A stretch of 64,000 nt of DNA, taken from the NCBI GenBank assembly GCA_025360225.1, contig JANYCN010000077.1, positions 12,232 to 76,231 on the forward strand. Reading direction: 5' to 3'. Below, piece after piece: positions 10,632 to 56,735 of the stretch. The stretch comes from Actinomycetes bacterium. GTDB lineage: Bacteria > Actinomycetota > Thermoleophilia > Gaiellales > F1-60-MAGs149. The notes beneath the pieces are model-generated. The model did no database searches. It was not told the origin of the DNA and saw nothing but the letters and a program-made list of their open reading frames with translations. A program made the translations under genes and the position numbers. Position 1 is the stretch's first letter. Every line of letters begins with the position of its first letter.

Positions 10632-11825
10632 ATGGCCAGCGTTCCGACGACCGACGCCGACCGCATGACGGCGACGCTCCGCCTGGTGATCGGTCCGATC
10701 GTCCTCGTAGGCGAGACGGTCGCATCGGCAGCCCCTGACCCCGGTGAGATCGTCGACGAGGACGTCGTCCTGCTCGCCGTTGGCCTCATCGTCTACGCGC
10801 TGGCCGTGCGCGTGCTCGTCCGAGGGAGAACGCGGCCGCGGGTGCTCGATCGCGTGACGCCACTTCTCGACATCGCGTTCGCCGTCGCGCTTGGCTTCGC
10901 CTCCGGCGGCCCCTTCAGCTTCCTCTCCCTCGTCTTCCTGTTCGCGCCGGCTGCAACGGCGTTCCAGCTTCGTCCCCGTCTAACGGCGCTGACCTCCGCC
11001 ATCAGCATCGCCGCCTTCTTCCTCCACGGGGCTGCGCATCCCAGCTCTGGTCGTCCGGGCGCCCTTGCCGAGCTCGTCGCCCGGACGATTTACATCTCCT
11101 GGGGTGGCGGGGTTCTCGTTGCGCTCTCCGCGCTCCTTGCACGCCGGGAAGCGCGGCTGCAGCAGGTTCTCGCGGAGCGGCGGTTGCTCGTGCGGGAGCG
11201 CCTTGGGGCAGATGACCGGGCGCGGACGAAGATCGCCCGCGACCTCCACGACGGCGTCCTTCAAAGCATCCTTGCGGTGCGCCTGACGCTGACCGCGGGT
11301 GCGGGAGACGATCGGTCGCGCGATCACCTCGTCGACGTGCTGGGCCAGGTGGTGGCCGACATGCGCGGGCTGATCGGCGAGCTACATCCGAGGGTTCTTG
11401 AGCAGGTGGGACTTCAGGCCGCGTTGACGTCGTTGCTGCGCGGTGCGGGTGAGCGGTCTCCGGGTATCGACATCGCCTCCACGCTGATCGACGACCTACC
11501 GGGTGGCCCGCACGACGAGGTGCTCTACCGAGCAGCGGTCGAGCTCGTGTCGAACGTCGCATCGCACGCTCGCGCGACGCGGATGGCGCTGTCGCTGCGC
11601 GCAGATGATGGTTGGCGCGTGCTCGTTGTCGAGGACGACGGGGTCGGGCTGGACCGCGCGACGCTTCCGGCCCGTCTCGAGGAGGGGCACATCGGGCTGC
11701 TGTCGCTTGACGAGCGCGTCCAGGCAGTGGGCGGCAACGTCGTGATGACCGCCGCCGTCGGAGGCGGACTCGTCGTGACGGTCAGCGTTCCGGTTGAACG
11801 CTCTCACAACATGTCAACTACATGA
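10632..11825 (+). CDS. membrane sensor histidine kinase, HisKA_3 type
   Basis: Several N-terminal hydrophobic segments, H-box ARDLHDGVLQS, ATPase boxes (VSNVASHA, VEDDGVGL). Starts 5 nt after the regulator gene. Confidence 0.82.
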   Translation: MASVPTTDADRMTATLRLVIGPIVLVGETVASAAPDPGEIVDEDVVLLAVGLIVYALAVRVLVRGRTRPRVLDRVTPLLDIAFAVALGFASGGPFSFLSLVFLFAPAATAFQLRPRLTALTSAISIAAFFLHGAAHPSSGRPGALAELVARTIYISWGGGVLVALSALLARREARLQQVLAERRLLVRERLGADDRARTKIARDLHDGVLQSILAVRLTLTAGAGDDRSRDHLVDVLGQVVADMRGLIGELHPRVLEQVGLQAALTSLLRGAGERSPGIDIASTLIDDLPGGPHDEVLYRAAVELVSNVASHARATRMALSLRADDGWRVLVVEDDGVGLDRATLPARLEEGHIGLLSLDERVQAVGGNVVMTAAVGGGLVVTVSVPVERSHNMSTT

Positions 11826-15300: not shown

Positions 15301-18300
15301 AAGACGACCGGGATCACGGAGCAGGCGCCGAACGAGCCACACGCGACGACGATGCTCGGCGGCGCGGTCGACGTGAACGTCCTGCCCTTCTTCTCGCAGG
15401 GCCTGACCGTCGACTGGGGCAAGCAGTCCTACGCGACTGGCGAGAACGGCGGCATCGTCGGCACCGTCAGCTACGGCACGACCCGCAACGAGACCGACCC
15501 GGCGCTCGCCGTCTTCGAGGACTGGCAGCCGGGGATCCCGAACATCTGGACGCACCTGTTCCGGCCACAGCTCGATCCGACGACAGGCAAGCCTGTGTTG
15601 GACAACAGCGCGACGCAGACAGGTTGCGACGTCTGCAGGGGCGACGGATCGGTCCTCGTCGTCGACACGGGCGGCAAGGTTGTCAACCAGCATGACGTGG
15701 TTTCCACCGTCGCCCTTGATGACGGCAACACCTACGACGTCGACAGCCTCGGCTACATCATCGATGCCGGACCCTCCTACCGCTCCGAGACGTGGCAGCG
15801 ACCGGTGGCCTGCGGTCCCGTGAACGCGGCCGATCCCGCTGGCAAGCCCCTCGCCATAGGCTCGACCTACTCTGCGGACGGGAAGAAGATCAGCTACCCG
15901 TGGATGCCGGACTTCGCGCAGTACCTTCTCGGTACCGGGGCGAACGCGACGCTCGACAACCAGAAGGGCTGCGTCGAAGGGCCTGCGGCGGCGACGAAGA
16001 TCGGGCTCGTCGATCCGACCGCGACCGACAGCCCGTGGGGCGCAACGGTGAACGGCAACTACGCGCTCGGCGACGTCTGGGATCCACTGCGCCTACCCGG
16101 AATAAACCCTGCTGCGGCCTCGGCAACGCCCGCCACGCTCGGTCGCCTCCCCCAGGGCACCTACCTCGTCAAGGTCGACCTGCCGCGCGATCGAAGCGGC
16201 AAGCCGATCCTTGAGGTCACGAAGGAAGAGGACGTCAACGTCTACACGGGGGACCACTTCACGACGCCGAGCGCGATCCACTACGACTGCGGCGGCGAGA
16301 AGCACATCGTCGACGTCGCTGGCGGCGGCGGCCCGTACACCGGCGACGCTCGGATCGGGCGCGGCGCGACCTACAACGGCGCGGTTGACAACCCCGGCCT
16401 GCTGAGCTTGCACGGCAGCCCCTACCAGGGGATGGCGAAGCCGGTCTGCGATTCCCGCATCGTCAAGGTCACGGACGGGCGCTCCGTCGCGCCGGGCTTC
16501 GAGCTCTTCACGAAAGTGCCCCTGCCGGGCGTGCACTTCGGCGTGATGATGGACGATCTCAACGTCAACGTCGACCCGGTGCACAGCTTCTACGGCGACC
16601 AGTCGACGATCCCGCACCTGCCCGTCTCCTGGTACGACTTCGCGGGCCGGCTCGTGCGACAGACGGTCACCGACCCGAACGGGTTCTACGAGGTGATGCT
16701 GCCGTCCACGAACCGGATCTCGAACCCGAGCCCGTCCGGCGTCTCCGCGCAGGCGTACACGATCGCGGCGAACGACCCGGGCTCCGTGAACGCGGCCGTC
16801 GGTCCAACGATTGCCAACCCGCGACCCACCAAGCCGAACCCTGACTTCAACCGCGCGTACCGCACGATCACGGGCGCCTTCCAGCTGTACCCGGGCGTGT
16901 CGTACGTGACCGATCTCGCCCTGTGGGGCGCCAACGTCGCGATCGACGCCCCGGGCACGCAGACGATCAAGCCGGCGCAGTGCATGCTCGACCTCGCCAC
17001 GCCGCAGCTGTTTGCGACTGACCGGGTCTGGGCGAACGCCTCAACCGGCGGCACCTTCACGCTCAGCGGCGAGGGCTTCGGGAACACCCCCGGGTCGCTG
17101 CGCCTCGTCAACGAGGACGCCGTGAGCGCTGGCCGTACCGGTAGTGTCACCTCCTACGGCTCCCGCGGAACGGTCAACTCGACCAGCGGGGGGAACCTCG
17201 ACTCGAACGTCGCCTACGCGCTTGGCGGCACGATCGTGCAGTCGGGGCTCGCAGGGACCAGTCGTGCCGGGACGATCGGAACGACCACCTCGATCCCCGT
17301 CACGGCCACCGTCTTGTCGGGCGCGGCTGACTCGATCGGCGTCGCCGCAGCTGGCCTCACAGGTCGTACCTCGGTGGGCGCAATCGTTGGCGCGGGTGTG
17401 ACAAGGACGGTAACCGTCTCCGGCGCTTCTCTCACTGCGAGCGGCCTGATCGGCGGGCGGATCGTGATCGGCGCGGTGACCGGCAACGTCACCGCGAACA
17501 CGACGACGACGATCAACTTCAACGGCGCGACCGGGACGAACCCGGCGGCGGGAACGGCGATCACCGTCTCGGCCTACAACGCGAACAACGGCGTGGTCCT
17601 GCTCTACGGCAGCCCGACGCCGACGGCCATCGTCTCAGGCATGTACCTCGCCGGCGGTGGCGTCACGGGCGTGGTTGCCTCCACGTCCAGCATCTCCGCC
17701 ACCACCGCCAGCTCGATCACGCTGCGTGCGGCGAACCCGCCCCGAACCACCGGCGAGGTTGACATCCCCTTCAGCGCCCTCGTCGGCGGATACAACGCCA
17801 ACACGACGGGCGGCGGCGGGGGCGCCACGGTCCGCACCATCTACTGGACGAATGGTCTCGCCGCCAACAGCCTCGCCGGCACGCGCGTCGCCGGTGGCGG
17901 CATTGCCGGCACAGTGTCGGCGAACACGACGAGCACCATCACCCTCGCCGCTGGCGCGACCGGCGTGAGTAACGCCACGGCCTTCTCGTTCTCGCTCGGT
18001 GGCTACAACGCAAGCACCCGCACGCTCTACACCACCAACAGCGTCGCGGGCGTGGCCCCAGGAATGTACCTGGACGGGGGCACCGTGACGGGTGCCGTTG
18101 TAAGCACCACCACCGGCGGCACGTTCAACAGCGTCACCCTCGGCACGACGAACCCGGCGCCGACCGGGGCGAGCACCGACCCGGGCCTCGCGGCCACCGT
18201 CGGCGGCTACAACGCCAGCACACGGACGCTGTTCACCACCGGGCTCACCGCCGGCGCGCTCACGGGGCTGGCGCTGAGCGCCAACGGCGGCGCGATCAAC

Positions 18301-21300
18301 GGCACCGTCTCCGCGAACACGCCGACGACGATCACGCTGACGGCCCCCACGACGGGATTCTCGACCGCCGCCGCTGTTGGCTTCTCCGCCTCGAGCTTCA
18401 ACGGACAGGTCGTCGCGGTTCCTGCCAACACGCTCGTTGCCGGCTCCCTTGTCGGCGCGACGCTCGTCATCAACTCGACGTCTGGCATCATCGCGTCGAA
18501 CACCGCCTCGTCGATCACGCTCACAGCGAACGTTGGCGCCGCCACCACGAACGCCGTTTCCTTCTCGGTGGCGAACGTCCTCGTCGCGGCCATCAACACC
18601 AACGGGCTCGCCGGACAGTGGGTGATCACCGGGACAACGCCGACCGCGTTCGAGGGGCGCATCCTCAACGCGAACGCGACTGCAGGACCACAACGATGGA
18701 TGGTCATCGACCCGACCAGCGTCATCGGCACCCTCCCGACCGCTGGGACGGTGTTCGGCCTGTTCAACCCCGTTCTCCCGGCCTTCACTCCGGCGGGGCT
18801 CGCGGGACGCACGCTGGCCAACGGCGCCGTCACGGTCGACCTATCGACCTTCACCGCGACCGTGCTGACCAACACGAGCACCACGGTGAACCTGGCCTCG
18901 GTTGGCACCCAGGTGCCGCCGATGCCTGGCCTCGCCCTCCACGTGCGCGGCGACCTGACCGTGGCGATGAACAACAGTCCCTTCGCCGCCGGCACCCTCG
19001 CGGGACTCGTGCTCCGGCGGACAGACAACAGCACGATCGGGACGATCCTCAGCAACACCGCAAGCAGCGTCGTCCTTGCGTCGGCGAGCCTCATAGGAGC
19101 GATCCCGGGCACCGGCAGCACGGTCTACGCCGACAACGGCGTGATCACCGTCGCAGGTCCACCGCTTGTCGCAGGGACGCTCGTCGGATCGCTCACCATC
19201 ACGAGCGGCGCCGACACCGGCTTCACAGCGACGATCCTCGGGAACACCACCTCGACGATCACGATCGACCTCGCCACGGCTTCGCCTACAACCCTGCCGA
19301 CGTTGCGACCATCGGTGGGTGACACCTTCTCGGTGACGGGTGGCCAGACGATCAGTGCCACCGCAACGAACGTGGTCTGGTCGGACACCTCGATCAGCTT
19401 CACCATCGCCGCTGGCGTTCGCCCAGGCCCGTACCAGCTCTACGTCGTCAGCGCGAACGGCCAGCAGACGGTGAACGGCGTGACGCTGCACCTGATCGGT
19501 GGCGTCGGATCTGGCTACTTCATAGCGCCGAACCGGATCCTCGAGGTCGGACCGGGCCGGCAGTTTGATCCAACGCTTGCACAAGTGACCGGAACGCTTG
19601 CCGGTCCGCCCGGTGCGCCCTCGGCGAACGGCGACGTGACCGTTCCGCTCGCCGAGAGCGTTGTCGGCGACCTGACCGGTCTCACGTTCCGGGTCACGGA
19701 CGGCGCTGCGCTCGACTACACGGGCACGATCCGCTCGAACACGGCGACCAGCGTCACGCTCCGCGGCGACGCGCTTGTCAGCGCGAACCCAGACATCGTG
19801 CCTGCGAGCGTCCCTGCGCCTGGCGACACGTACTCGATCCGCCGTGGTCGGGGGATCCAGGACGCTATCAACACCGCCGCGGGCATACCGTCCGTAACGC
19901 CGGAGGGCAACCTTGGCGCCCTCGACAACTCGCCGGCGCTCGTCGTGGTCTATCCGGGACAGCCGGACATGGTCTACGACCCCGCCGGGCAGAGCCAGAG
20001 CAACGTCAACCCGCGAGGGGTGTACTTCGAGAACGTCGTTGTGCCGACCGACATCAAGATCCAGGGCGTAGGGCCCGGCGGCGTTCGCGCCGCGGGCGAT
20101 GCCGTCCCGGGCACCGTCGTCGATGGCTCCCAGTTCGTGATCAAGGACGGTGGCCGTTACGCCGTTGACTGGTACAACCTCGCCCTGTACGCTCAGGCCT
20201 CCAACGGCAATTCGAGCCCGATCGCCGACGGCTCGACGATCTACGAGCTGCCGGGGCATACCGACCTCTCGCCCGTGAACGGCGCGGCGGCCAGCGCGCT
20301 TGGCTGGCCTCGGACGCGCACAGCGGGCGGCGGATTCGCCACCGACGTCTACACCAACGCCACCAACGCCCCCGGGGTCGTGCAGGTCTCTGGAGGCACC
20401 GCGACGACAGCTGGGCTCGGGACGGCGCCACTCGCCCTCGTCACCGACCCACTCACCGTGCCGGCGAGCGGAACGATCACCGTGCGCTACCGCACGGGCG
20501 GCGGCGTGTTCGGACGGGCGAGCCTGTTCGTCCACCAGTTTGGCGCCAGCTTCAAGGCGGGCGTCGACGGCCTCTCGATCGAGGGCGGCGACATGCTCGA
20601 GTTCCCGACGAACCTGAACGGGAACGGCGGCGGCCCGCTGCCGCGGCGGGTGCTCTCCGTCGGACAGCCCGTCACGCAAGGCGGCGGGATCTTCGCCGAC
20701 ATGTACGCGAGCTTCCTGCAGCTAAAGAACAACATGATCACCGGTAACTCCGGCAGCTACGGCGGAGCGATCCGCCTCGGCACGCCGAACGTGCAGAACC
20801 CGAGCCACGCTGTCGGAGGCGCGTTCACCGATGACCTGTCAAACGAGAACAACGACGTCCGGATCGCGAACAACCAGGTCAACGCCAATGGCGGCGGCCG
20901 GCTCGCCGGCGCGATCGGCATCTTCAACGGCGCCGACCGCTTCGAGCTGGCCCGCAACGAGATCTGCGGTAACTACTCCGCGGAGTACGGCGCCGGCATC
21001 GGCGTCTTCGGACACTCGCCGTCCGGGGTGATCCACTACAACCGCGTCTACTTCAACCAGAGCCTCGACGAGGGCGCTGGCATCTTCATCGCTGGCCAGC
21101 TTGCGACACCGCGCCCGCTCTCGAACCAGCCGGTCAACGGGCAGCTCGCGACCGTCCCCGGCTGGAGCCAGGGCACCGGGCCCGAGACGATCGACGCCAA
21201 CGTCGTCCAGTCCAACCTCGCGAACGACGACGGGGGCGGCATCCGCTTCCTGATGGCCGGCAGTGACCCGCAGACGGTCACGAACAACATCATCGCCAAC

Positions 21301-22407
21301 AACGTCTCGACGCACGAGGGCGGAGGCATCGCGATCGACGACACGACGAACGTCGCGATCACCGGAAACACGATCGTCAAGAACATCACGACGGCGACCG
21401 CGATGACCTCCGACGGCGCTGCGGCTCCCGCAGGCGTCTCGGAGGGAGCGAACTCGAACCAGCTGCAGGACTGGTACGCGGCAAACCACCCGGGAACGAC
21501 GCTGCCGAAGTGGACGCCGGCGATCCTGACCAATAACGTCCTCTGGGACAACCGCGCCGGGACATACCGGAACGGCAACATCCTTGGCATCGGCGGGGCC
21601 GATGACCAGATGCCGATCAGCCACTGGGACGTCGGCTCCACCGATCCGCTCGCGACGCTCGCCGGTGGGTTCCTGTCCGGCAGCAGCTCGCTCGTTGCCA
21701 ACCTCCTCCAGGACGTCACCGGGCACGGCGACCTGAGCTACGGCGCATCGTCGGTCGACGTCTCCGGTCTCGACAACAACGGCGCGCTCGCGGGTGTCGG
21801 GAAGCTGTTCTCCGCCACCTACGACACCAGCGTCCTAACGACGCCGATGCGGGCCAACGCCCACTTCGTCTCGAACACGATCGTCGCGCTTGACTTCCCG
21901 CCGACCCGGATGGGCAACTACAAGCAGCCTGCGGGCGGCGGTCTCGAGCGGCTCGCTGGCGCGCTCCTCGGCTCGAGCCAGGCACCGGCGAGCGCCTGGG
22001 ACATCGACCACGACCCACGCTACAGCGACGTCGGCTACGACGTCGGCGCCGACCAGTACCTGGCTTCCACCGCGCCACGTATCGCTCCGCTCATGCGGCG
22101 AAGCGTGCTCTCGGTTCGGGCGACGATCACGCCGTCGGCCGTGGCGACACCCGGCACGAGCCTGGTCGGCGGGCTTGCCGCCGACCGGATCGTCGGATCC
22201 TGCGCCGGTTGCACCGCGGTCCTGCAGATCCGGCACGGGACGACGCTGCGCGCCATCCGTCTCCGCACCGTTCCCGGCGGCTTCGCCGGGTCCGTCCGGC
22301 TCGCCGCGGGCACGTACCGCTACCGCGTCGTCATCCACAACAGCAGGGCCCACCGGACGCACGTGTCCGCGTGGATCCAGATCACGAACCCGAAGGGGGC
22401 GCGATGA
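12313..22407 (+). CDS. giant (3364 aa) secreted multidomain surface protein
   Basis: Uninterrupted ORF with a Sec signal (MSALGTARRSLLLSVVLGLLLAVPVWA). Contains CnaB/SdrD-B-like segments, a PPLPLPPPPPPP linker, about 11 Thr/Gly/Ala-rich modules, an IPT/TIG-like domain and parallel beta-helix repeats. No LPXTG motif or C-terminal TM segment seen. Confidence 0.9.
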   Translation: MSALGTARRSLLLSVVLGLLLAVPVWADQVKIDMREGRTVWDPAQQSVLVHDFDTLAEGIGNTRWDGTYYWTILHDVTSDPYDSTRHCSPAAALLASQGINVDHMTPAQAQGTGVTDAQRGALAEAYAAYPGSCNWPSIHTIAPGATPFAAILDPTQLDPTSTAQYVTNSGTQDDLNATKSVANLPDGKYMIASWATNKSGNASYEVGGGYFWIACDPATAVATGCDTTAPAPVDVAPPRVTYAGNGDTSGGTTLAFTDPAFPDPSVPGKSPVGMVVLVTGDPKYADSMYLVVGATKVATGRVVITLGGTTTGTPYATRFPSDLAVPTNVSFELRSAPANYKDMMNVQVFQELNPLPTATYRVDVFNDTSKVNGEYDRQTEIGLNGFKAILTDITGNAVTINYYGDQICTEYEPIYVLAHPTRAWDAVTNPVVVQMDANHQSVYQLYDAAKNRLYRTFSVAEDSTNRFVADALGNPKPDLDTTGQPFFLPAQVSVGAWQDSGTKPRPITGSGGLCLSHDVPVNSETGAPLPEIETRGHIVIRDLEPGRYSTLVTPTTQVDGVNGSLPFHPTWSQTTTLEGAHDWDQWLVAGDTGYDHEFVNGTEKVTPVTSGWVEQTGDLPGLDHQFTASSAAGATPFPGVDAIGQPIAVNGSTTTVKNVVGANVSLADGVGRSSGSWTVSWPVNYSTSGTVAIATTAGNPGLVALDGIPAYAVGAKLHLGSQTFTIATVSGDALTIVPPLPLPPPPPPPGATGFPATIPAGTPFTIDGYLPTSGQIVPTPALGEIHGTVSDNFSYTQDPVNANYLGFGDGAQTAVRSESKLEVSLVDLNNGDTMVYQRSFFVEDPANALKAGEYDIPNVPAGDYEISFWDFAQNELLFSRNVTVSPGETGSTKRVELDNTPLVGWWTEISGYVFDDRNGNGKQDYTDTNHNGHWDVGEPGEPGISNFFLSVRARENTLFEQGANTATTDQNGHYVLRAAYPVGQWVVLEAYMDGYKTTGITEQAPNEPHATTMLGGAVDVNVLPFFSQGLTVDWGKQSYATGENGGIVGTVSYGTTRNETDPALAVFEDWQPGIPNIWTHLFRPQLDPTTGKPVLDNSATQTGCDVCRGDGSVLVVDTGGKVVNQHDVVSTVALDDGNTYDVDSLGYIIDAGPSYRSETWQRPVACGPVNAADPAGKPLAIGSTYSADGKKISYPWMPDFAQYLLGTGANATLDNQKGCVEGPAAATKIGLVDPTATDSPWGATVNGNYALGDVWDPLRLPGINPAAASATPATLGRLPQGTYLVKVDLPRDRSGKPILEVTKEEDVNVYTGDHFTTPSAIHYDCGGEKHIVDVAGGGGPYTGDARIGRGATYNGAVDNPGLLSLHGSPYQGMAKPVCDSRIVKVTDGRSVAPGFELFTKVPLPGVHFGVMMDDLNVNVDPVHSFYGDQSTIPHLPVSWYDFAGRLVRQTVTDPNGFYEVMLPSTNRISNPSPSGVSAQAYTIAANDPGSVNAAVGPTIANPRPTKPNPDFNRAYRTITGAFQLYPGVSYVTDLALWGANVAIDAPGTQTIKPAQCMLDLATPQLFATDRVWANASTGGTFTLSGEGFGNTPGSLRLVNEDAVSAGRTGSVTSYGSRGTVNSTSGGNLDSNVAYALGGTIVQSGLAGTSRAGTIGTTTSIPVTATVLSGAADSIGVAAAGLTGRTSVGAIVGAGVTRTVTVSGASLTASGLIGGRIVIGAVTGNVTANTTTTINFNGATGTNPAAGTAITVSAYNANNGVVLLYGSPTPTAIVSGMYLAGGGVTGVVASTSSISATTASSITLRAANPPRTTGEVDIPFSALVGGYNANTTGGGGGATVRTIYWTNGLAANSLAGTRVAGGGIAGTVSANTTSTITLAAGATGVSNATAFSFSLGGYNASTRTLYTTNSVAGVAPGMYLDGGTVTGAVVSTTTGGTFNSVTLGTTNPAPTGASTDPGLAATVGGYNASTRTLFTTGLTAGALTGLALSANGGAINGTVSANTPTTITLTAPTTGFSTAAAVGFSASSFNGQVVAVPANTLVAGSLVGATLVINSTSGIIASNTASSITLTANVGAATTNAVSFSVANVLVAAINTNGLAGQWVITGTTPTAFEGRILNANATAGPQRWMVIDPTSVIGTLPTAGTVFGLFNPVLPAFTPAGLAGRTLANGAVTVDLSTFTATVLTNTSTTVNLASVGTQVPPMPGLALHVRGDLTVAMNNSPFAAGTLAGLVLRRTDNSTIGTILSNTASSVVLASASLIGAIPGTGSTVYADNGVITVAGPPLVAGTLVGSLTITSGADTGFTATILGNTTSTITIDLATASPTTLPTLRPSVGDTFSVTGGQTISATATNVVWSDTSISFTIAAGVRPGPYQLYVVSANGQQTVNGVTLHLIGGVGSGYFIAPNRILEVGPGRQFDPTLAQVTGTLAGPPGAPSANGDVTVPLAESVVGDLTGLTFRVTDGAALDYTGTIRSNTATSVTLRGDALVSANPDIVPASVPAPGDTYSIRRGRGIQDAINTAAGIPSVTPEGNLGALDNSPALVVVYPGQPDMVYDPAGQSQSNVNPRGVYFENVVVPTDIKIQGVGPGGVRAAGDAVPGTVVDGSQFVIKDGGRYAVDWYNLALYAQASNGNSSPIADGSTIYELPGHTDLSPVNGAAASALGWPRTRTAGGGFATDVYTNATNAPGVVQVSGGTATTAGLGTAPLALVTDPLTVPASGTITVRYRTGGGVFGRASLFVHQFGASFKAGVDGLSIEGGDMLEFPTNLNGNGGGPLPRRVLSVGQPVTQGGGIFADMYASFLQLKNNMITGNSGSYGGAIRLGTPNVQNPSHAVGGAFTDDLSNENNDVRIANNQVNANGGGRLAGAIGIFNGADRFELARNEICGNYSAEYGAGIGVFGHSPSGVIHYNRVYFNQSLDEGAGIFIAGQLATPRPLSNQPVNGQLATVPGWSQGTGPETIDANVVQSNLANDDGGGIRFLMAGSDPQTVTNNIIANNVSTHEGGGIAIDDTTNVAITGNTIVKNITTATAMTSDGAAAPAGVSEGANSNQLQDWYAANHPGTTLPKWTPAILTNNVLWDNRAGTYRNGNILGIGGADDQMPISHWDVGSTDPLATLAGGFLSGSSSLVANLLQDVTGHGDLSYGASSVDVSGLDNNGALAGVGKLFSATYDTSVLTTPMRANAHFVSNTIVALDFPPTRMGNYKQPAGGGLERLAGALLGSSQAPASAWDIDHDPRYSDVGYDVGADQYLASTAPRIAPLMRRSVLSVRATITPSAVATPGTSLVGGLAADRIVGSCAGCTAVLQIRHGTTLRAIRLRTVPGGFAGSVRLAAGTYRYRVVIHNSRAHRTHVSAWIQITNPKGAR
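15040..15300 (+). other. SdrD-B/CnaB-like calcium-binding fold inside the giant protein
   Basis: ISGYVFDDRNGNGKQDYTDTNHNGHWDVGEPGEPGISNFFLSV...TTDQNGHYVL matches the familiar 'G.V..D.N.NG..D..E.G' SdrD B-repeat pattern. Confidence 0.6.
17446..19773 (+). repeat. protein-level array of about 11 degenerate modules within the giant protein
   Basis: Recurrent pattern L-x-G-x-x-[LVF]...G-x-[IV]-x-[SAG]-N-T-x-[ST]-[ST]-[IV]-[TV]-[LI], e.g. GTVSANTTSTITL, GTVSANTPTTITL, GIIASNTASSITL, GTILSNTASSVVL, ATILGNTTSTITI, GTIRSNTATSVTL. GGYNA(S/N)T sub-repeats are interleaved. Confidence 0.7.
19318..19503 (+). other. IPT/TIG-like Ig fold inside the giant protein
   Basis: GDTFSVTGGQTISATATNVVWSDTSISFTIAAGVRPGPYQLYVVSANGQQTVNGVTLHLIGG has the IPT/TIG beta-sandwich pattern. 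Confidence 0.5.
20681..21560 (+). other. right-handed parallel beta-helix (pectate-lyase-like) repeat region of the giant protein
   Basis: Successive turns: NNMITGNSGSYGGAIRL, NNQVNANGGGRLAGAIGIF, NEICGNYSAEYGAGIGVF, NVVQSNLANDDGGGIRF, NNIIANNVSTHEGGGIAID, TGNTIVKN, TNNVLWDN. Confidence 0.7.
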
Positions 22408-24104
22408 CCGATGCCTCGCACGTGCGGCTCAGCCGCCGGCGCCTACTCGAGCTCGGCGGTGGAGCGACCGCCGGCGCGCTCGGCGCTGGAGTCCTCGCCG
22501 AGCTCCTCCGATCGCCCGGGACGGCTCGGGCGGGCGGGCTCGGCGGCGCCTCCGGCCCGGTCCTGTCGGTCGACCAGAGGACGATCGTCCGACGCTCGCT
22601 CGCCGGCACCGATGGCTGGATCTACCTCGGCGGACCGCCCCAGCAGACGGAAGCTGGTAAGGCGTTCTTCCCGGACGACATGGCGCCGGCGCCGCAGAAC
22701 GTCTACGTCTACGGCTTTCGCGACGTCACGTCAGCCCACCTCCAGTGGAACAACCTGCAGAGCGACGGCATGCCGGCCGGGATGGACGACGCCCACAGGA
22801 CGGCCGGCCACGACGCCCTCTACGGGTTGAAGGGTCAGACGCAGAACTCGTCGGTGATCCTCTTCTTCGACGAGGGCGACCAGGTCGAGATCACGCTCTA
22901 CAACCTTGGCTGGCAGCAGCGACCGGACATCCCCGACGGCCACACGATCCACTGGCACGGTTTCCGGGACGCGATCCCCTGGTACGACGGTGTCCCGGAG
23001 ATGTCCGGCGCGGCCCCGATCAACAAGACCTTCACCTACTTCTACGACTGCCAGATCCCCGGAACCTACATGTACCACTGCCACTGGGAGGACGTCGAGC
23101 ACATCCAGATGGGCATGACCGGCGCGATCTGGATCCGCCCGAAGCAGAACCTCGGCGTCGGCTCGATCCCGCCAGGCAAGTACGTCTACAACGACGGCAA
23201 CGGGTCGACAGCCTACGACCGCGAGTACGCCTGGATGCTGATGGACTACGACCTCGAGAAGCACCAGATGATCTCGCACATCCAGCAGCCGGACTGGCAC
23301 CTCTACCAGGCCAGCGGATGGATGATCAACGGCCGTTCCTACCCTGACACGATCGAGCCGCAGGGCGTCGCCGGCATCGGCACACCGAGCGGGGACGCCA
23401 TCGCGACGGGCGTCGTCATCGACTTGCCGACCGTGACGGATGGCGCGTTCTCGATCGCCACGAGCAGCAGCGACTCCACGACGGACGTCAGCGGGCAGCT
23501 TGCCTGGGTCACGAAGGGCACGGGCGCCGGCCAGGTGATGTCGATCACGTCGGGCACGCCGAGCTCGTTCATCGTCGACAAGCTCCCCTACCAGACGCTC
23601 GTGACGGCGAAACAGACGCGCCCCGACGACGTCGCGAAGGACGCGCCGATCCTTAAGGTGGGCGACACGATCGAGTTCCACCGGCCCGGCGCGAACCTCG
23701 TCTACCAACCAAACAGCGCGCTCGTGGCGGGTAATGCCGGGGACCGGGTGCTCGTTCGCATCGCGTGTCTTGGCTACCAGGACCACTCGATGACGATCGA
23801 TGGGTTGCCGTTCCGGGTCGTCGGCCGCGACGGCGACTGGCTCGCCGACAACGAGTACCGCACCGACGTGATCGACTGTGCCCCGGGCGAGAGCTACGAC
23901 GCGATCATCACGTTGCCGGCGCACAGCGGCGGCACGGGTCCGGACGTGTACATGTTCTACGACCGCGACCTGCCGTACTACAACAACGACGACGGCACGA
24001 GCGCCAACGGGTTCAATGGCATGGCGACCGAGGTACGCGTCTTCGCGGCGGGGTCGCTGCCCTCCCAACACATCGACCTCGCCAACAGCTGGGTGAAGGG
24101 GTAA
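22404..24104 (+). CDS. Tat-exported multicopper oxidase (MCO-A) with type-1 site and two HxH pairs in the first cupredoxin domain
   Basis: ATG 22404 forms an ATGA overlap with the giant-gene stop; SD GAAGGGGG lies upstream. Twin-arginine signal SRRRLLELGGGATAGALGAG. HTIHWHG (22941-22961) and YHCHWEDVEHIQMGM (23073-23117). The C-terminal cupredoxin-like domain (VRIACLGYQDHSMTIDG...) has no HxH. Confidence 0.85.
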   Translation: MTDASHVRLSRRRLLELGGGATAGALGAGVLAELLRSPGTARAGGLGGASGPVLSVDQRTIVRRSLAGTDGWIYLGGPPQQTEAGKAFFPDDMAPAPQNVYVYGFRDVTSAHLQWNNLQSDGMPAGMDDAHRTAGHDALYGLKGQTQNSSVILFFDEGDQVEITLYNLGWQQRPDIPDGHTIHWHGFRDAIPWYDGVPEMSGAAPINKTFTYFYDCQIPGTYMYHCHWEDVEHIQMGMTGAIWIRPKQNLGVGSIPPGKYVYNDGNGSTAYDREYAWMLMDYDLEKHQMISHIQQPDWHLYQASGWMINGRSYPDTIEPQGVAGIGTPSGDAIATGVVIDLPTVTDGAFSIATSSSDSTTDVSGQLAWVTKGTGAGQVMSITSGTPSSFIVDKLPYQTLVTAKQTRPDDVAKDAPILKVGDTIEFHRPGANLVYQPNSALVAGNAGDRVLVRIACLGYQDHSMTIDGLPFRVVGRDGDWLADNEYRTDVIDCAPGESYDAIITLPAHSGGTGPDVYMFYDRDLPYYNNDDGTSANGFNGMATEVRVFAAGSLPSQHIDLANSWVKG

Positions 24105-24108
24105 CGAC

Positions 24109-25605
24109 GTGGACGCAACCACCTCTACCACCGCGCTGCGACTCCGGCTCGCCGCCCGCCCGATCCTCGCTGTCCCTGCAGCTGCCGTGCTTGTCGCCGG
24201 GGCGCTCGGCATGATGACGACCACGGCCCGTTCGATCACCCCGGTTGTCGCCCGCGACGGCATCATTGACATGTGCGACAACGGCACGCCGGCGACCGGC
24301 AACCAGCGTGTGTTCGTGCTCACGGCTCGGGATGGCGCCATCCACACCGCGGACGGCAACTCCGTGCCGATGTGGGGATTCGCCCCTGACAACGGCGCAT
24401 ACCAGTATCCGTCACCGTTCCTCTGCGCCAAGCTCGGCGAGCGGGTCAGCGTGATCTTGCACAACGCAATCACCCCGGTTCCCGTCGCGGGCACCGCGAC
24501 CGTGACGCCCGTACGAACCTCGATCATGTTCCCGGGACAGACCGGTGTCCTCGCGAGGGGCGTGTCTGCGCAGCCTGAGCTGGACGGTTCCGGGAACCTC
24601 CGGTCGCTCGTCCCGTCGATCACGAGCGGCGACTCGATCACCTACTCGTTCGTTGCGGAAAGGGCCGGATCGTTCCTCTACCAGAGCGGCACCAACGCCG
24701 CCGTCCAGGAGCAGATGGGCCTCTTCGGTGGCCTCATCGTCCGTCCAACCGGCGGACAGACCACGGCGAGCGCGACCCTCTACGACGACGCGTTGGTCAA
24801 CAGTACGGCGAACCCGAACGCGACCGATCGCTACGACCCGCAGCGAGAGTTCGTGCAGATGCTCTCCGACGTCGACGTGACGGTGCACAACAACGTCGTC
24901 GACGGCATCACCATTGACATGGCGACCCTCCGGCCTGAGTACTTCTTCATCAACGGTCGGTCGATGCCCGACACGGTCGCCCCGAACCATGCGTCGTGGT
25001 TGCCGGCACAGCCCTACAGCGCGCTCGTCCACGTGTTGCCATACGTGGCGAACGGGCCGGCGGACGGTGCGCAGATCACCGTCGGCGGCTCGACCTTCAC
25101 CTGCAAGGGGCGCTGCTATGACCCGTTGCCCGCGGCGATTCGCTACTTCAACGCCCGGGAGAAGACCTCGCCGTTCCACCCGCACGCGGCGGACACGCTG
25201 GTGCAGGGCTTCGATGGCAACCAGCTCGTCTCGCCGTCGGGCACGAACCTCTCGATCAACCACTACGTCGTCAACCTCGCGGCAGGACAGACTGCCGACG
25301 CGACGTGGCTCTGGCGTGACCAGCACGCATGGAGCCCGATCGCAACCCACCAGGGTCCGGTGCCGGTGCATGACTTCCGCGACACGCGCTACACGGGCGG
25401 CGGGAGCTGGTACGGCGGCACGCCGTATCTTGGCTACACCGATGACCTGCAGGACGGCGTCACGTCGTTCAACGAGTGCGGCGAGTACTACCACGTGGCG
25501 CACAGCCATTCGGTGAACGAGGCGACGACCTACGGCGCGGCGATGGGCGGCATGCTCACCCTTTACCGTATCGATCCCCCCGGCATGTGGAACTGCGGGC
25601 ACTGA
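24109..25605 (+). CDS. multicopper-oxidase-like protein (MCO-B); N-domain ligands lost, C-domain HxH pairs kept, type-1 Cys replaced by Ser
   Basis: GTG 24109 lies 4 nt after the MCO-A stop, with SD GAAGGGG. Hydrophobic N-terminal anchor. SIMFPG and FLYQSG sit where HxHG and YHSH are expected. FHPH (25174-25185) and HVAHSH (25492-25509) are retained. Confidence 0.8.
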   Translation: MDATTSTTALRLRLAARPILAVPAAAVLVAGALGMMTTTARSITPVVARDGIIDMCDNGTPATGNQRVFVLTARDGAIHTADGNSVPMWGFAPDNGAYQYPSPFLCAKLGERVSVILHNAITPVPVAGTATVTPVRTSIMFPGQTGVLARGVSAQPELDGSGNLRSLVPSITSGDSITYSFVAERAGSFLYQSGTNAAVQEQMGLFGGLIVRPTGGQTTASATLYDDALVNSTANPNATDRYDPQREFVQMLSDVDVTVHNNVVDGITIDMATLRPEYFFINGRSMPDTVAPNHASWLPAQPYSALVHVLPYVANGPADGAQITVGGSTFTCKGRCYDPLPAAIRYFNAREKTSPFHPHAADTLVQGFDGNQLVSPSGTNLSINHYVVNLAAGQTADATWLWRDQHAWSPIATHQGPVPVHDFRDTRYTGGGSWYGGTPYLGYTDDLQDGVTSFNECGEYYHVAHSHSVNEATTYGAAMGGMLTLYRIDPPGMWNCGH

Positions 25606-25606
25606 G

Positions 25607-28600
25607 ATGCCTCATCACCGGACACCAGGAGAACGTGCCGTGATCATCCGCCGTCGTGCGTGCACGCTTGCCCTCTCACTGCTCGCCGTGACGACGCCGG
25701 GAGCCTTGGCTGCGGGCATCGGGAAGCTCGACCCTACCGGCAGCGGCTGCGTCCGCTCAGGGACGCACCTGACCTGTGACCTCTGGGTCGAGCCGGCAAC
25801 CATGGTGGTTCCCGCCGGGTTCCGTGCCAGCATTCCGGGCTCCGCGACCGACTCGTCGACCACGCTCGGGAGGCTCGCCGCCCTCGGCTACAATCTGCCG
25901 ACCTGGGTCTACGCCGCCGGCGCAAGCGAGCCGACGGGGCCCTTCACGGGCACGGGCGGCCCCACGATCGTCGCCAGCGAAGGTGACGCGGTGACGGTGA
26001 ACCTTCACAACACCCACCTGCTAGTTCCCCTGTCGCTGACCTTCCCACAGATCGTCGGCGTGCGTCATGACGGTCGTGCAGGCTCCGATCGCCTGGGCGT
26101 CGCGGGCGCGACAGTCACGACCTACACCTTCACTGCCTCGAGCCCCGGAACCTTCCTGTACCAGGCGGGGCCGACCGTGGCCGGCAAGCGCGCGATCGCG
26201 ATGGGGCTCTCAGGGGCGCTCGTCGTGGAGGGGAACACGGGCGCATATGACCTGCCTTCCGGGGCGTTCACGGACGAGGCCGTCGTCCTCCTCCAGGAGC
26301 TCGACCCGGCGCTGAACCTTTCGACCACGCCCTGGACGTTCGATCTGAGCCACTTCCAGGCGCACCTCTGGCTGCCGAACAACGCGCTCAGCGGCCGCTC
26401 GGGTGGCTCGAACACCGTGTCGGTCTCGGCGAACGCACCAACGCTCGTGCGCTACGTCAACGCGGGTCTGCAGGATCACTGGGTCTCGCTGCTCGGTTTG
26501 CCACAGCTTCGGATCGCCCAGGACGCGCAACCCCAGGTGAACCTAGGCCACGGGGTGGGTAACGCCAACTCAGACCAGTCGCTCAACGTGACGGTCGCCG
26601 CGCTCCCGGCCGGCACGACCGAGGACACGATCATCGCGATCCCCGGCACGACGCCGGACGGGTCGGCGTTCCCGCTCTACGACGACGGCAACGACGGCGG
26701 CACCTACGTAGCCACCGACGCCGCCGCCGTACGTGGGCCAGGGGTGTTCCAGAACCTCGTGGTCGCGACCGGAACCGGCACCGGTTCGATCGCGGCGTGC
26801 GGGATCACCGGCAGCGCCCCGCTCGCGACCGTGACTGGCCTCACTCCGCTCACACAGACGGTCGGTGGCGCGTCGCTCGCTGACGCATCGATCGCCGGCA
26901 CGGCCGTGGTCTGCGGTTCCGGGAGCCCCGCCTCGGCCGTCGAGTACTTCCTGGACGACATGGGAGCTCCCGGTACCGGCACGCCAGTGACGATGACTGG
27001 TGGTACGTTCACGACGACGATCTCGACCGCGACGCTCCTCGCGATCGACTCGAGTACCACCCCGGCGAGACGCGCCCTGCCCCACCGGGTGTGGTTCAGG
27101 GCGAACAACGGCAGCGCGTGGGGTGAGCTAAGCTCCGCGGAGATCGTCCTTGACACGGTCGGGCCTGACGTGAAACGCATCTCTACCGACCCGACGATCT
27201 CGAACGGCACGACGAGCGTGCACGTCTGGGTCTCCGGCGATGAGACGACGACCGGCAACACCGTCGTGACAGGCTTCGCCTGGTCGATCGCCGGTGCCAC
27301 GGATGCGGCGTGCGCGAGCACGGTGGGGATCCCGACGATCAATCAGGCCCCCGAGGTTGACCTCCAATTCGACATCCCGGTGGCGTGCACGTCGACGCTC
27401 GGCGAGGGGAACCACCTCCTCTCGATCGTCGCCACCGATCACTACGGCAACGCCACGGCGGCGGGTGGCATGAATGACCCGAACACCTACACGGTCGCGA
27501 TCGACACGACACCGCCTGCGCTCGTCCGGACCGCCGGCCTCGTTCGCGTCCCGGCCGGGCCGGACACGCCCGGCTCGCCCTACCCGGGCGACACGACCGC
27601 CGTTGCCGTCCAGGTCCTGCAGCGTCTCCCGTACGACGCCCAGAATCCGACCGGCGTGTTCGGAGGTCCGTTCACGAACTGGAACAACGGCACGCTCCCG
27701 TGGGAGCTGAACACCCACGAGCTCGGCGTGCGCGCCTCCGCGAGCGATCCCACCACGACCGGCGTGCGCTCGGGCGTCGCCGCGATGTACGGCTCGTTCG
27801 ACCCGGCGTTCTGCTCGACCGCCGATCCCGCCGGGGTTGGGGCACGCCTCGACGCGCAGGGCGGTCGCTTCCACGAGCCTGCGATCGGGTTCCAGTACAT
27901 CCCGCTCGCGCAGCTCGCGCAGTACACCAAGCTGTCCGCCGCCAGCAGCACGGACGCGACCTACCCGGGCGTCCGCGTCGCCTACTACGTGCGTGTCGTC
28001 GACACGGCCGGCAACTGGTCGGCGTGCCCGCATACCTACGACGTCGCGCTCGATGCTTCGGCGGGAACGCAACGTGACGAGATGGCAGCCGACCCCCTGA
28101 CCGGATCGCTGATCGTCGCCATCGGCGGCGACTTCGCAGTCGGCTCCCTGCAGCTGCCGAAGATCACAGCAGGTAACCGCGCAGTGTTCGCGAGCAGCCC
28201 GCGCCACACGACGATCAACGTCACGCTGCGTCTCGATGCCGCAACTCGCGGGGAGGGGAACGGCGTGACCGGTGCCGAGTGGTTCGACGGTCACGATCCG
28301 GGAGTCGGGAACGGTGTCCAGTTCTCTCTCGTCTCCGGGCAGTGGGGCGCCGTCACGGCCAACCTCGTCTCGACCGTCTCGACCGTTCGCTGGACACCTG
28401 GCGTGCACGTCATCGCGGCGCGCGTCCGCGACCGTGCAGGCAACTGGTCGGCGCTCACGACGGCCCGCTTCTCCGTCAGCCCGAGGGCGGTCTTCGCGGA
28501 CGGGTTCGAGTCGCGGCTCCGTCGTTGGGCCCACCGACAGGGAGTCGCGGTAACGTCCGCGGCAGCGCTCGTCGGGCGCCTCGGCCTGGCAGTGACGACC

Positions 28601-29038
28601 GGACACGGCGACGCCTACGTCGAGGCGCCCGCCCTGAGCACCGATACCTACCGCGCATCGTTCGTGGTCGACACCAACGGCTCACGTGTCGAGGGCGCGG
28701 TGCAGGACCTTCTTCTTGGCTCGAGCGGACGCGTCCGCCTGTTCGCCATCCAACGCACGACGCGCGGACAGCTCCAGTACATCCGCCTCGTCGCTCTCGA
28801 CGGAACACGGACGAAGGTCGGCGGGTGGACGGCGACGGGCGACGACCGCCACGCCGTCAGCGTCTCCTGGTTCGCCGGCTCGTCCGGCCTGGCCGAGCTG
28901 CGGCTCGACGGCCAACTCGTCTCCCGGCTTGCGGTGCTGCGCGCCGACGCGGCCCGTCTCACGACCGTCCGGCTCGGTGCGCTCGGTGGTGCTGGTACAG
29001 GATCGATCCGCTACGACGCGTACGTCTCAACACGCTAA
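25607..29038 (+). CDS. 1143-aa secreted protein: two ligand-less cupredoxin (MCO-like) domains, Ig-like modules, C-terminal LamG/jelly-roll-like domain
   Basis: ATG lies 1 nt after the MCO-B stop. Signal-like ACTLALSLLAVTTPGALAAG. TVNLHNTHLLVPLSLTFPQ and GTFLYQAGP..MGLSGALVVEG align to MCO domain 1 without His ligands. LDTVGPDV / IDTTPPAL Ig-module starts. C-terminus is AVFADGFESRLRRW...RLDGQLV... Confidence 0.75.
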   Translation: MPHHRTPGERAVIIRRRACTLALSLLAVTTPGALAAGIGKLDPTGSGCVRSGTHLTCDLWVEPATMVVPAGFRASIPGSATDSSTTLGRLAALGYNLPTWVYAAGASEPTGPFTGTGGPTIVASEGDAVTVNLHNTHLLVPLSLTFPQIVGVRHDGRAGSDRLGVAGATVTTYTFTASSPGTFLYQAGPTVAGKRAIAMGLSGALVVEGNTGAYDLPSGAFTDEAVVLLQELDPALNLSTTPWTFDLSHFQAHLWLPNNALSGRSGGSNTVSVSANAPTLVRYVNAGLQDHWVSLLGLPQLRIAQDAQPQVNLGHGVGNANSDQSLNVTVAALPAGTTEDTIIAIPGTTPDGSAFPLYDDGNDGGTYVATDAAAVRGPGVFQNLVVATGTGTGSIAACGITGSAPLATVTGLTPLTQTVGGASLADASIAGTAVVCGSGSPASAVEYFLDDMGAPGTGTPVTMTGGTFTTTISTATLLAIDSSTTPARRALPHRVWFRANNGSAWGELSSAEIVLDTVGPDVKRISTDPTISNGTTSVHVWVSGDETTTGNTVVTGFAWSIAGATDAACASTVGIPTINQAPEVDLQFDIPVACTSTLGEGNHLLSIVATDHYGNATAAGGMNDPNTYTVAIDTTPPALVRTAGLVRVPAGPDTPGSPYPGDTTAVAVQVLQRLPYDAQNPTGVFGGPFTNWNNGTLPWELNTHELGVRASASDPTTTGVRSGVAAMYGSFDPAFCSTADPAGVGARLDAQGGRFHEPAIGFQYIPLAQLAQYTKLSAASSTDATYPGVRVAYYVRVVDTAGNWSACPHTYDVALDASAGTQRDEMAADPLTGSLIVAIGGDFAVGSLQLPKITAGNRAVFASSPRHTTINVTLRLDAATRGEGNGVTGAEWFDGHDPGVGNGVQFSLVSGQWGAVTANLVSTVSTVRWTPGVHVIAARVRDRAGNWSALTTARFSVSPRAVFADGFESRLRRWAHRQGVAVTSAAALVGRLGLAVTTGHGDAYVEAPALSTDTYRASFVVDTNGSRVEGAVQDLLLGSSGRVRLFAIQRTTRGQLQYIRLVALDGTRTKVGGWTATGDDRHAVSVSWFAGSSGLAELRLDGQLVSRLAVLRADAARLTTVRLGALGGAGTGSIRYDAYVSTR

Positions 29039-29045
29039 TCACCCA

Positions 29046-29657
29046 ATGCGACGGGCCGACTGCATGGGGAAGGGGCTCCGTTTCCGGGTCACACCGGAGC
29101 GGGGCCCCGGTCGGCCGCTCATCACGACGAACCCGAGCCGGAAGGCCGCCGTGTCTCACATCGGAGCTCCGTCGTTCCCGAGTGGTTCGCGGCAGGTTCT
29201 CGCGGCCCTTGCGCTTGCGCTTCTCGGCTCCGTCGCGGTCTTCACCGGCGCGCAGCGGCTCGTCCAGCCGGTCATGGGCCCGCGGACGTTCGGTCCGGGC
29301 GCGACTCATGGCGGCACCATGCCGCATTCGCAGGCCATCGAGGCAACCTATGGCGTCGAGTTCTACCAGGTCGGACTGTCGGGGGACGGTGGGCTCGTCG
29401 ACGTGCGCTTTCGCGTGCTCGACGCGTCACGTGCCGCTCCGGTTCTGGGCCATCAGGCGACGATCAAGATGGTGGTCGGAAACGAGCGCACCCGTTCGCT
29501 GTTCGACACCCGAGCGATGACGCCGGGTGAGTCGAACCTCGTTGCCGGGCAATCCTACTGGGTGCTGTTCCGCAATGCCGGCGGCGACATCACGCGCGGC
29601 GACCGCGTCGACATCTTCGTCGGCGCCTTACATCTCGATGGTGTTCTTGTTCAGTAG
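29046..29657 (+). CDS. small membrane-anchored protein with a His/Met motif (THGGTMPH); last gene of the operon
   Basis: Same strand, 7 nt after the preceding stop. One hydrophobic segment (VLAALALALLGSVAVF) then a domain of about 130 aa. Alternative starts: ATG 29064, or GTG 29151 (preceded by GGAAGG). GC3 is coding-like from 29046. Confidence 0.55.
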   Translation: MRRADCMGKGLRFRVTPERGPGRPLITTNPSRKAAVSHIGAPSFPSGSRQVLAALALALLGSVAVFTGAQRLVQPVMGPRTFGPGATHGGTMPHSQAIEATYGVEFYQVGLSGDGGLVDVRFRVLDASRAAPVLGHQATIKMVVGNERTRSLFDTRAMTPGESNLVAGQSYWVLFRNAGGDITRGDRVDIFVGALHLDGVLVQ

Positions 29658-30220
29658 TCGCCGTCAGGAGCGCAGCGCAGCGCCGCGTTCGGGCGCAGCG
29701 CGCCGAACGCGTCTGGATCGTCCCGACGCAGGTGCTCGGCCAGCCGGGCGTACTGCTCAGCGATCGGACCGTCGGCCGCGACCGGGTACTCGAGCTCGTA
29801 GACGATCCGGCGCACGCCGGCCTGGATCGCCTCCTTGAGGCACCCGAAGCAGGGGCTGAGCGTCGAGTACAGCGTCGCGCCGTCGGCGCGCATCCCGAAG
29901 CGTGCCGCGGCGAGCAGCGCGTTCTGCTCGGCGTGGACGCAGATGCAACGATCGAGGCCTCGGCCGGGGATGTGTTCCGGGTCTGCCATCTCCTCGCCGC
30001 GCCCCTCCGCGAGCAGGCGCCGATCACGGCAGCGCAGGCAGCCGCCGTCGAGGCAGTTCGTGAAGCCGCTCGGCGTGCCGTTGTAACCGGTCGAGACGAT
30101 GTGGTCGTCAACGACGAGGACCGCGCCAACCTGCGAGCCGAGGCAGTTCGCCGCCTCGCGCACCGCGCGGGCGATCGACATGAAGTAGTGGTCGCGCCGG
30201 ACGAGACGTTCGTCAGACAA
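29651..30220 (-). CDS. dCMP/deoxycytidylate deaminase (ComEB-like)
   Basis: Zinc motifs CVHAEQNA and SPCFGCLKEAIQAG. Converges on, and overlaps by 7 nt, the preceding + strand gene. Confidence 0.85.
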   Translation of the reverse strand: MSDERLVRRDHYFMSIARAVREAANCLGSQVGAVLVVDDHIVSTGYNGTPSGFTNCLDGGCLRCRDRRLLAEGRGEEMADPEHIPGRGLDRCICVHAEQNALLAAARFGMRADGATLYSTLSPCFGCLKEAIQAGVRRIVYELEYPVAADGPIAEQYARLAEHLRRDDPDAFGALRPNAALRCAPDGDY

Positions 30221-30230
30221 CCGCTACGGG

Positions 30231-30422
30231 CTACAGGGCCTTCTGGACCTTGCCGCCCTTGAGGCAGCGGGCGCAGACGTACGCGCGCTTCTGCACGCCG
30301 TCGACGATGATGCGGACACGCTGCAGGTTCGGATCGAACCGGCGCTTCGTGGCGACCATCGAGTGGCTCCGGTTGTTACCGAAGGAAGGCTTGCGATCAC
30401 AGACGGAGCAGACGCGGGACAT
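30231..30422 (-). CDS. rpmB: 50S ribosomal protein L28
   Basis: [38 protein letters not shown] is a typical L28. Confidence 0.92.
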
Positions 30423-56662: not shown

Positions 56663-56735
56663 AGGGGCGTAGCTCAGCTGGTAGAGCATCGGTCTCCAAA
56701 ACCGAGGGTCGCAGGTTCGAGCCCTGTCGCCCCTG
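56663..56735 (+). tRNA. trnW: tRNA-Trp (anticodon CCA)
   Basis: Folded by hand. Acceptor AGGGGCG/CGCCCCT, D arm GCTC-AGCTGGTA-GAGC, anticodon arm TCGGT-CTCCAAA-ACCGA, T arm GCAGG-TTCGAGC-CCTGT, discriminator G. 73 nt; CCA is not encoded. Confidence 0.93.

Follow-up and report, generated by a model that had tools for sequence, protein, structure and literature searches.

The multicopper oxidase genes of the window

We analyzed a 64,000-nucleotide (nt) stretch of the genome of an Actinomycetes bacterium of the order Gaiellales (assembly GCA_025360225.1, contig JANYCN010000077.1, positions 12,232 to 76,231), hereafter the window, with regard to three adjacent genes on the plus strand that encode proteins of the multicopper oxidase (MCO) superfamily, referred to here as MCO-A, MCO-B and MCO-C, or A, B and C. 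MCO-A (positions 22404 to 24104 of the window; 566 amino acids (aa)) carries a twin-arginine translocation (Tat) signal (SRRRLL) and two cupredoxin domains, with a lineage-specific insertion at about residues 320–430. MCO-B (24109 to 25605; 498 aa) consists of an arginine-rich signal peptide and two cupredoxin domains, and MCO-C (25607 to 29038; 1143 aa) begins with a signal peptide, followed by a degenerate pair of cupredoxin domains (about residues 45–390) and approximately 750 aa of immunoglobulin (Ig)-like domains. The genes are tightly packed: A and B are separated by 4 nt from stop to start codon, in agreement with an earlier note on this sequence, B and C are separated by 1 nt, and the start codon of A overlaps the stop codon of the upstream gene, which encodes a giant secreted protein, by 4 nt (ATGA). 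An NCBI-derived set contained both proteins with identical starts, A as P0001 (566 aa) and B as P0121 (498 aa), each identical over its full length (100% identity, 100% coverage). Automated annotation labels each of the genes 'multicopper oxidase domain-containing protein'.

The Pfam models Cu-oxidase_3, Cu-oxidase_2 and Cu-oxidase matched A, and Cu-oxidase_3 matched B and C, all above the cut-off, which, together with the structural matches to MCOs, assigns these proteins to the MCO superfamily fold. Furthermore, the three proteins were homologous to one another across both cupredoxin domains (hhalign probability 99.7–100%), with E-values of 5e-39 for A and B, 2e-52 for B and C, and 6e-27 for A and C. 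Such end-to-end homology indicates that A, B and C are paralogues, of which C is the most divergent.

The copper ligands are divided between MCO-A and MCO-B

In A, the motif HTIHWHG (residues 180–186; 22941 to 22961) contributes H180 to the type-1 (T1) blue-copper site and H183 and H185 to the trinuclear cluster, and the motif YHCHWEDVEHIQMGM (residues 224–238; 23073 to 23117) adds the cluster ligands H225 and H227 along with C226, H233 and M238 of the T1 site, so that domain 1 of A holds a complete T1 site and four cluster histidines. Domain 2 of A has no cluster ligand at all, and no HxH is present in the translation beyond residue 227, as the earlier note had observed for the C-terminal part of this protein. 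In B, domain 1 is stripped of all copper ligands; hhalign placed SIMFPG and LYQSG opposite HTIHWHG and YHCH of A, in line with the same note, and M140, P142, Q192 and G194 occupy the cluster positions. Domain 2 of B keeps four cluster histidines, namely H357 and H359 in the motif FHPH (residues 356–359; 25174 to 25185) and H465 and H467 in the motif HVAHSH (residues 462–467; 25492 to 25509). Translation of 22404–24104 and 24109–25605 reproduced exactly the four motifs on which the idea of a split enzyme had originally been based. No HxH pair and no copper ligand were found in C.

Taken together, A and B possess exactly the canonical ligands, a single T1 site and eight histidines for the cluster, and this set is complete in neither of these chains, nor in C, alone. 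The four HxH pairs that mark an MCO are thus not found in a single protein here, as A has two, B two and C none. Likewise, neither A nor B supplies cluster histidines from both of its domains, as a chain of a type C homotrimer does. The T1 site of MCOs is present in A alone, and only A shows the type C arrangement, i.e., two cupredoxin domains with the T1 site in the N-terminal one.

Conservation of the ligand split in Actinomycetota and Chloroflexota

A genome scan with the A alignment identified at least 556 species genomes with an A-type gene matching two search motifs. From these, 80 loci belonging to many orders of Actinomycetota and to Chloroflexota were kept, and the alignments made from them comprised 81 orthologues of A, 73 of B and 64 of C. 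At the T1 site of domain 1, H180, C226, H233 and M238 were conserved in 99% of the A proteins; the equivalent positions are occupied by T, S, Q and L in B and by no copper ligand in C. The domain-1 cluster histidines of A (H183, H185, H225 and H227) were 98–99% conserved, and correspond to V/M, P, E/Q and G in B and to A/T, P, E/Q and G in C. At the cluster positions of domain 2, H357, H359, H465 and H467 were present in 100% of the B orthologues (H462, the first residue of HVAHSH, in 75%), A proteins had T464, D466, Y519 and R521 (78–98%), and C proteins S, L, Y and a variable residue. The vacated positions in domain 1 of B and C and in domain 2 of A and C therefore hold conserved residues other than histidine. 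Since the twelve ligands are 98–100% conserved over phyla and the vacant positions hold conserved non-histidine residues, the split pattern is not a product of chance.

The order of the genes was equally stable. An intact B gene followed A in 73 of the 75 loci with enough DNA past A, the other two containing frameshifted B fragments, and a clear C gene followed B in 64 of the 66 loci with enough DNA past B, with divergent C matches in the remaining two. The order A-B-C is therefore essentially universal among these relatives.

Family placement and structural models

The nearest solved relatives of A domain 1 by sequence were the blue copper oxidase of Nitrosomonas europaea (3G5W) and the metagenomic laccase mgLAC (2ZWN), both of which have HTIHWHG and HCH...H...M in domain 1. 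In AlphaFold monomer models, B reached a predicted local distance difference test (pLDDT) value of 81 and a predicted template modelling (pTM) score of 0.83, and A reached 77 and 0.77, respectively. Over both domains, the best fold matches of the two models were 2ZWN, 3G5W, 3GDC, 4KNS and 7RAB, with target-normalised TM-scores of 0.70–0.77; structures of the nitrite reductase NirK were also among the fold matches. FHPH of B aligned with HSHG and HTHG of domain 2 of 2ZWN and 3G5W, and HSH of B was in register with the domain-2 HDH of 2ZWN in an alignment that was weak. Compared with the usual A proteins of 420 aa, A of the window bears two insertions (about residues 108–135 and 320–430), the larger of which lies between the cupredoxin domains, is rich in beta structure and was modelled with pLDDT values mostly of 34–74.

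The family models for laccase, ascorbate oxidase, CopA and NirK all scored far below their cut-offs. An identity as NirK was rejected on the basis of TIGR02376, which gave 27.4 bits for A and 16.6 bits for B against a cut-off of 296, and of the HxH pairs, which differ from the type-2 (T2) copper pattern of NirK, in which domain 1 gives two histidines and domain 2 gives one. Similarly, a copper-resistance enzyme of the CopA/CueO type, a three-domain single chain, was discarded, as the copper_res_A model TIGR01480, with its cut-off of 479 bits, scored A at 34 and B at 29 bits and the closest structures are two-domain MCOs. A single-chain protein of the ceruloplasmin type was also dismissed, as the domains are located on three genes with their own signal peptides.

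A distant clade carries the same division of ligands

An exhaustive profile search with A retrieved 416 cluster representatives at E ≤ 1e-30, many of which belong to a sister clade that is mostly proteobacterial and has the T1 loop HCHVEATEHMQMGM. The size of this clade was at least 7891 sequences, from 8000 scored candidates, at E ≤ 1e-10. Four of its loci (L086 to L089; Steroidobacteraceae-like, Methylocaldum-like and Desulfuromonas-like) showed the order giant protein (or giant-A fusion), A, B, C and a small protein that we term D, and in all four, the HxH pairs numbered exactly two in A, both of them in domain 1, and exactly two in B, both of them in domain 2, with none in C. The arrangement is found across hundreds of bacterial species.

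Some A modules of the sister clade form the C-terminal end of proteins of 900–2800 aa, the N-terminal parts of which are collinear homologues of the giant protein of the window. The presence of giant and A on one polypeptide in some bacteria argues that the two work together. In three of the four proteobacterial-type loci, D was followed by a subtilisin-like (S8) protease (L086, 13945–15669; L088, 12985–15216; L089, 13001–14677), with a MopE-type copper-binding domain in two of them, and three of the four loci also had SCO1/SenC and a large cytochrome c near the cluster. None of these three accompanying genes, i.e., those for the S8 protease, SCO1/SenC and the large cytochrome c, was found in the window.

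Partner genes and genomic surroundings

The giant secreted protein encoded upstream of A (12313 to 22407, plus strand; 3364 aa) contains SdrD-B-like, fn3_3 and beta-helix/NosD-like segments, although the SdrD_B, beta-helix and NosD matches were weak and below cut-off. A homologue was encoded upstream of A in 63 of 72 loci, and we propose that the giant protein might serve as a partner or tether of the oxidase. With regard to its length, the protein of the window is about twice as long as its homologues in other loci (1650–2000 aa).

Downstream of C, the small, membrane-anchored protein D is encoded at 29064 to 29657 on the plus strand, with an uncertain start (alternatives at 29046 and 29151). 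D was encoded immediately behind C in 61 further loci and also in the proteobacterial clusters; it showed no known domain or informative family match, and no conserved histidine, cysteine or methionine. In the window, a minus-strand gene for a dCMP/cytidine deaminase (29651–30220) abuts D. A CopC-CopD fusion was encoded downstream of D in 53 of 55 related actinobacterial loci; D is present in the window, but no CopCD or SCO1 homologue was detected there, and the fusion gene is missing from its expected place at 29658–30300. The accessory copper genes vary by lineage, with CopCD in Actinobacteria and SCO1 in Proteobacteria, a distribution more in keeping with cofactor supply than with copper resistance.

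Just upstream of the operon, genes for a NarL-type response regulator (9994–10626) and a HisKA_3-type sensor kinase (10632–11825) were read from the sequence, both on the plus strand, and this pair may possibly regulate the operon. A NarL/HisKA_3-type pair also flanks the proteobacterial clusters L088 and L089, and the actinobacterial relatives L001 and L004 have instead an OmpR-type pair that is divergently transcribed. The two-component system beside the relatives was considered as a copper regulator and dropped, as it proved to be an OmpR-family pair of the generic kind, without any specific link to copper. Scans of the operon for promoters, terminators and tandem repeats yielded nothing informative.

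The operon is embedded in a chromosome stretch of 67–74% G+C with housekeeping genes on both sides (rpe, rib genes, RsmB, FakA/DegV and RecG). Among these, the riboflavin genes at 6441–8876 encode riboflavin synthase, RibBA and lumazine synthase; no flavin mononucleotide (FMN) riboswitch was found at the Rfam gathering threshold in the whole window, where the sole RNA match of the Rfam scan was a tRNA (56663–56735).

Proposed assembly and alternative explanations

In two-domain MCOs, domain 1 of one molecule and domain 2 of an adjacent one enclose the trinuclear cluster, so that oligomerization is obligatory (PMC3527528). These enzymes are typed by the location of the T1 site, type C being that with T1 in the N-terminal domain, and the known ones form rings of three chains (PMC13151041). 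Under this interchain rule, and given the distribution of ligands described above, a complete cluster would be possible only where domain 1 of A meets domain 2 of B, which is also the only interface at which the ligand matrix appears to permit cluster binding. Because such a ring takes three two-domain chains, and because the paralogue C has both domains in full and always lies beside A and B, we propose an A-B-C heterotrimer. A, B and C would accordingly be paralogues of the type C two-domain MCOs that share out the copper sites among them, most likely in a ring of the order A-B-C, of which one interface would carry an active cluster and the other two no copper; to this reading we assign a probability of roughly 0.7.

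In such a ring, domain 1 of A would give the T1 site and four cluster histidines, domain 2 of B the other four, and C none. The copper-free interfaces would be marked by the conserved Arg, Asp and Tyr of A at the domain-2 positions where B has cluster histidines. The substrate, possibly a metal or mineral, would be oxidized at the T1 site in A, electrons would pass through C226 and then the flanking H225 and H227 to the cluster, and O2 would be reduced to water, as in the standard MCO path. The complex would be extracytoplasmic and linked to the giant protein and to D. The physical contact between A and B, the place of C in the ring, catalysis and the nature of the substrate are inferences, the electron path being taken from what is known of the enzyme family. 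In a more far-reaching version, which we put forward tentatively and with the odds leaning somewhat against it, an obligate heterotrimer mounted on a giant adhesin-like beta-helix protein would be a widespread surface machine that oxidizes solid or metal substrates, e.g., mineral Fe(II) or Mn(II), and a living intermediate between homotrimeric two-domain and single-chain six-domain MCOs.

Several observations do not sit easily with a shared cluster in an A-B-C ring. Conserved histidines that are not canonical copper ligands lie at the start of domain 2, namely H287 and H292 of A (about 23262–23279; 99% of 81 orthologues) and the homologous H260 of B (24886–24888), with Asn at this place in C; H461 of A is also mostly conserved (84%). 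When taken alone, the second domain-2 motif (HSH of B; Y519 and R521 of A) could be aligned only weakly to solved structures. A further point concerns export, as A homologues mostly bear a Tat signal (109 of 120), whereas B and C have arginine-rich signal peptides, look Sec-exported and contain conserved disulfide-type cysteine pairs (C56/C106 and C457/C496 in B, 99–100% conserved; C48/C57 in C, about 88%). The only conserved cysteine of A in the orthologue alignment is the T1 ligand. This distribution of cysteines suggests differing export and folding routes within what would be one enzyme, and with Tat export of A and Sec-like export of B and C, the subunits could assemble only once exported. 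Natural fusions of A with B or of B with C, which would speak for contact, were looked for and no genuine one turned up: the candidate P0137 (820 aa) was rejected as a frameshift read-through of B into C, and P0123 as a B protein carrying an insertion of about 250 aa. Finally, the place proposed for C in the ring is based on its paralogy and co-occurrence with A and B. As for P0123 itself, its insertion is a separate one and is located in domain 1 of B.

In order to weigh the A-B-C ring against other explanations, we considered the same evidence from three further angles. A and B might share the cluster with C outside the ring, either as an A-B pair or in another stoichiometry, C then acting as an anchor or adhesin. 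That the ligands are confined to A and B, that C has about 750 extra, Ig-like residues and that it has diverged most would all agree with this. However, both cupredoxin domains of C are homologous end to end with those of A and B, C follows B in essentially all loci including those of the distant clade, and the known two-domain MCOs are closed three-chain rings (PMC13151041), which an A-B pair could not complete; we regard this arrangement as unlikely, albeit one to be kept in mind. A second explanation dispenses with the composite cluster. Here, A would be a NirK-like or otherwise reduced copper enzyme, active by itself or in a homotrimer, that uses its four domain-1 histidines and perhaps H287, H292 and H461, and B would be a separate copper chaperone or store. 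The extra conserved domain-2 histidines of A, the NirK structures among the fold matches and the copper-handling genes (CopCD and SCO1) in the clusters speak for it, but the HxH pairs and HCH of A are a pattern of MCOs and not of NirK (27 bits against a cut-off of 296), and the four histidines of B occupy precisely those domain-2 positions that bind the cluster in two-domain MCOs. Moreover, the possibility raised in the earlier note that additional histidines of A might complete the cluster of a homo-oligomer was not borne out, as the domain-2 positions needed for this purpose are the conserved T, D, Y and R of A. Such an explanation would also leave unaccounted for the complementarity of the two ligand sets and the 100% conservation of the histidines of B beside those of A, and it is therefore quite improbable. 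The alternative that the earlier note itself had offered, a NirK-like A with a non-catalytic B, fits poorly for similar reasons, given the HxH pairs in A and the four invariant histidines in B.

A further explanation takes the proteins as copper-poor structural or adhesive surface proteins with decaying relic motifs, similar to degenerate MCOs of the FtsP/SufI type. Four of the six domains are indeed free of ligands, and the partners are adhesin-like giant proteins. Nevertheless, the conservation of the twelve retained ligands over phyla is the opposite of decay, and accessory copper-delivery genes are conserved alongside, so that this explanation is excluded in practice and has only the slimmest of chances. 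The comparative tests, i.e., the complementary and jointly conserved histidine sets, their location on the two domain surfaces that meet between chains in two-domain MCO trimers, the adjacency of A and B and the recurrence of the split in a distant clade, favour the split MCO that the earlier note had put forward, which we extend by C as a probable third member of the ring.

Comparison with known systems

Type C two-domain MCOs such as 3G5W and 2ZWN resemble A in having the T1 site in domain 1 and near-identical HxxHxH and HCH...H...M motifs, and in these enzymes the ligands of each cluster are supplied jointly by two neighbouring chains, one through domain 1 and the other through domain 2 (PMC3527528, PMC13151041). 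They differ in that they are homotrimers with both halves of the ligand set on every chain and hence three clusters per trimer, compared to at most one in A/B/C. NirK, like A, has two cupredoxin domains with the T1 site in the first, and it forms a trimer in which the catalytic copper lies between the chains. However, it uses three histidines for a single T2 copper and its chains are identical, whereas A and B together offer eight histidines in four HxH pairs.

To our knowledge, the eight cluster histidines are located on one kind of polypeptide in all MCOs described so far, and a literature search for a hetero-oligomeric or split-ligand MCO found none. Nmar_1354 (PDB 9CCK), described as a 'heterotrimer', was considered as a precedent and rejected, since it derives from one chain by proteolysis. 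In the Mnx complex, which is made up of MnxG with MnxE/MnxF, the MCO ligands are all in MnxG, and the partner subunits are not known to be MCO paralogues. Together with MofA/OmpB, Mnx represents the multi-subunit or very large extracellular MCO systems that have been linked to the oxidation of metals and whose genes have SCO1 and cytochrome genes as neighbours (PMC5566968). If the division proposed here is true, A/B/C would be the first hetero-oligomeric MCO of the split-ligand sort, and A or B expressed singly would probably be an inactive enzyme.

In Sideroxydans lithotrophicus ES-1, 'three tandem MCO-coding genes' were reported next to genes for a copper chaperone and a cytochrome resembling MofC (He et al. 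2017, PMC5566968). The products of Slit_1812-1818 were more abundant on magnetite, and comprise two proteins with MCO motifs and a larger third one without them (Keffer et al. 2025, PMC11429942). In this 'three cupredoxin-containing cluster', the three tandem genes (Slit_1816-1818) encode extracellular MCO-like proteins and are accompanied by genes for SCO1/SenC, a cytochrome and small proteins of the hypothetical class (PMC5566968, PMC11429942). At the level of published description, its gene order matches that of the proteobacterial relatives L086 to L089, and the version in the window differs from it in being actinobacterial, in the Tat signal of A and in that related genomes have CopC-CopD in place of SCO1. 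Neither of the two papers (PMC5566968, PMC11429942) reports the ligand split or proposes a hetero-oligomer. Consequently, the gene cluster had already been noticed in Sideroxydans in the form of a probable relative, and it is the ligand split itself that appears to be new. As this probable relative was induced during growth of Sideroxydans on magnetite (PMC11429942), the complex may bear on bacterial mineral oxidation.

An architectural parallel would be ceruloplasmin, which was among the profile matches. The six cupredoxin domains of ceruloplasmin (1KCW, 2J5W) form a ring of pseudo-threefold symmetry, in which a trinuclear cluster is present at one interface and absent from the two equivalent ones, and the layout proposed here would be this plan built from three polypeptides. 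The two differ in that ceruloplasmin is one polypeptide with three T1 sites, and A/B/C would be three chains with one. A looser parallel is provided by activated factor VIII, an A1/A2/A3-C1-C2 heterotrimer that arises by proteolysis and is not catalytic. A long-standing proposal derives the single-cluster, six-domain enzymes from two-domain ancestors that were assembled as trimers, and the split family would serve as a natural test of that proposal.

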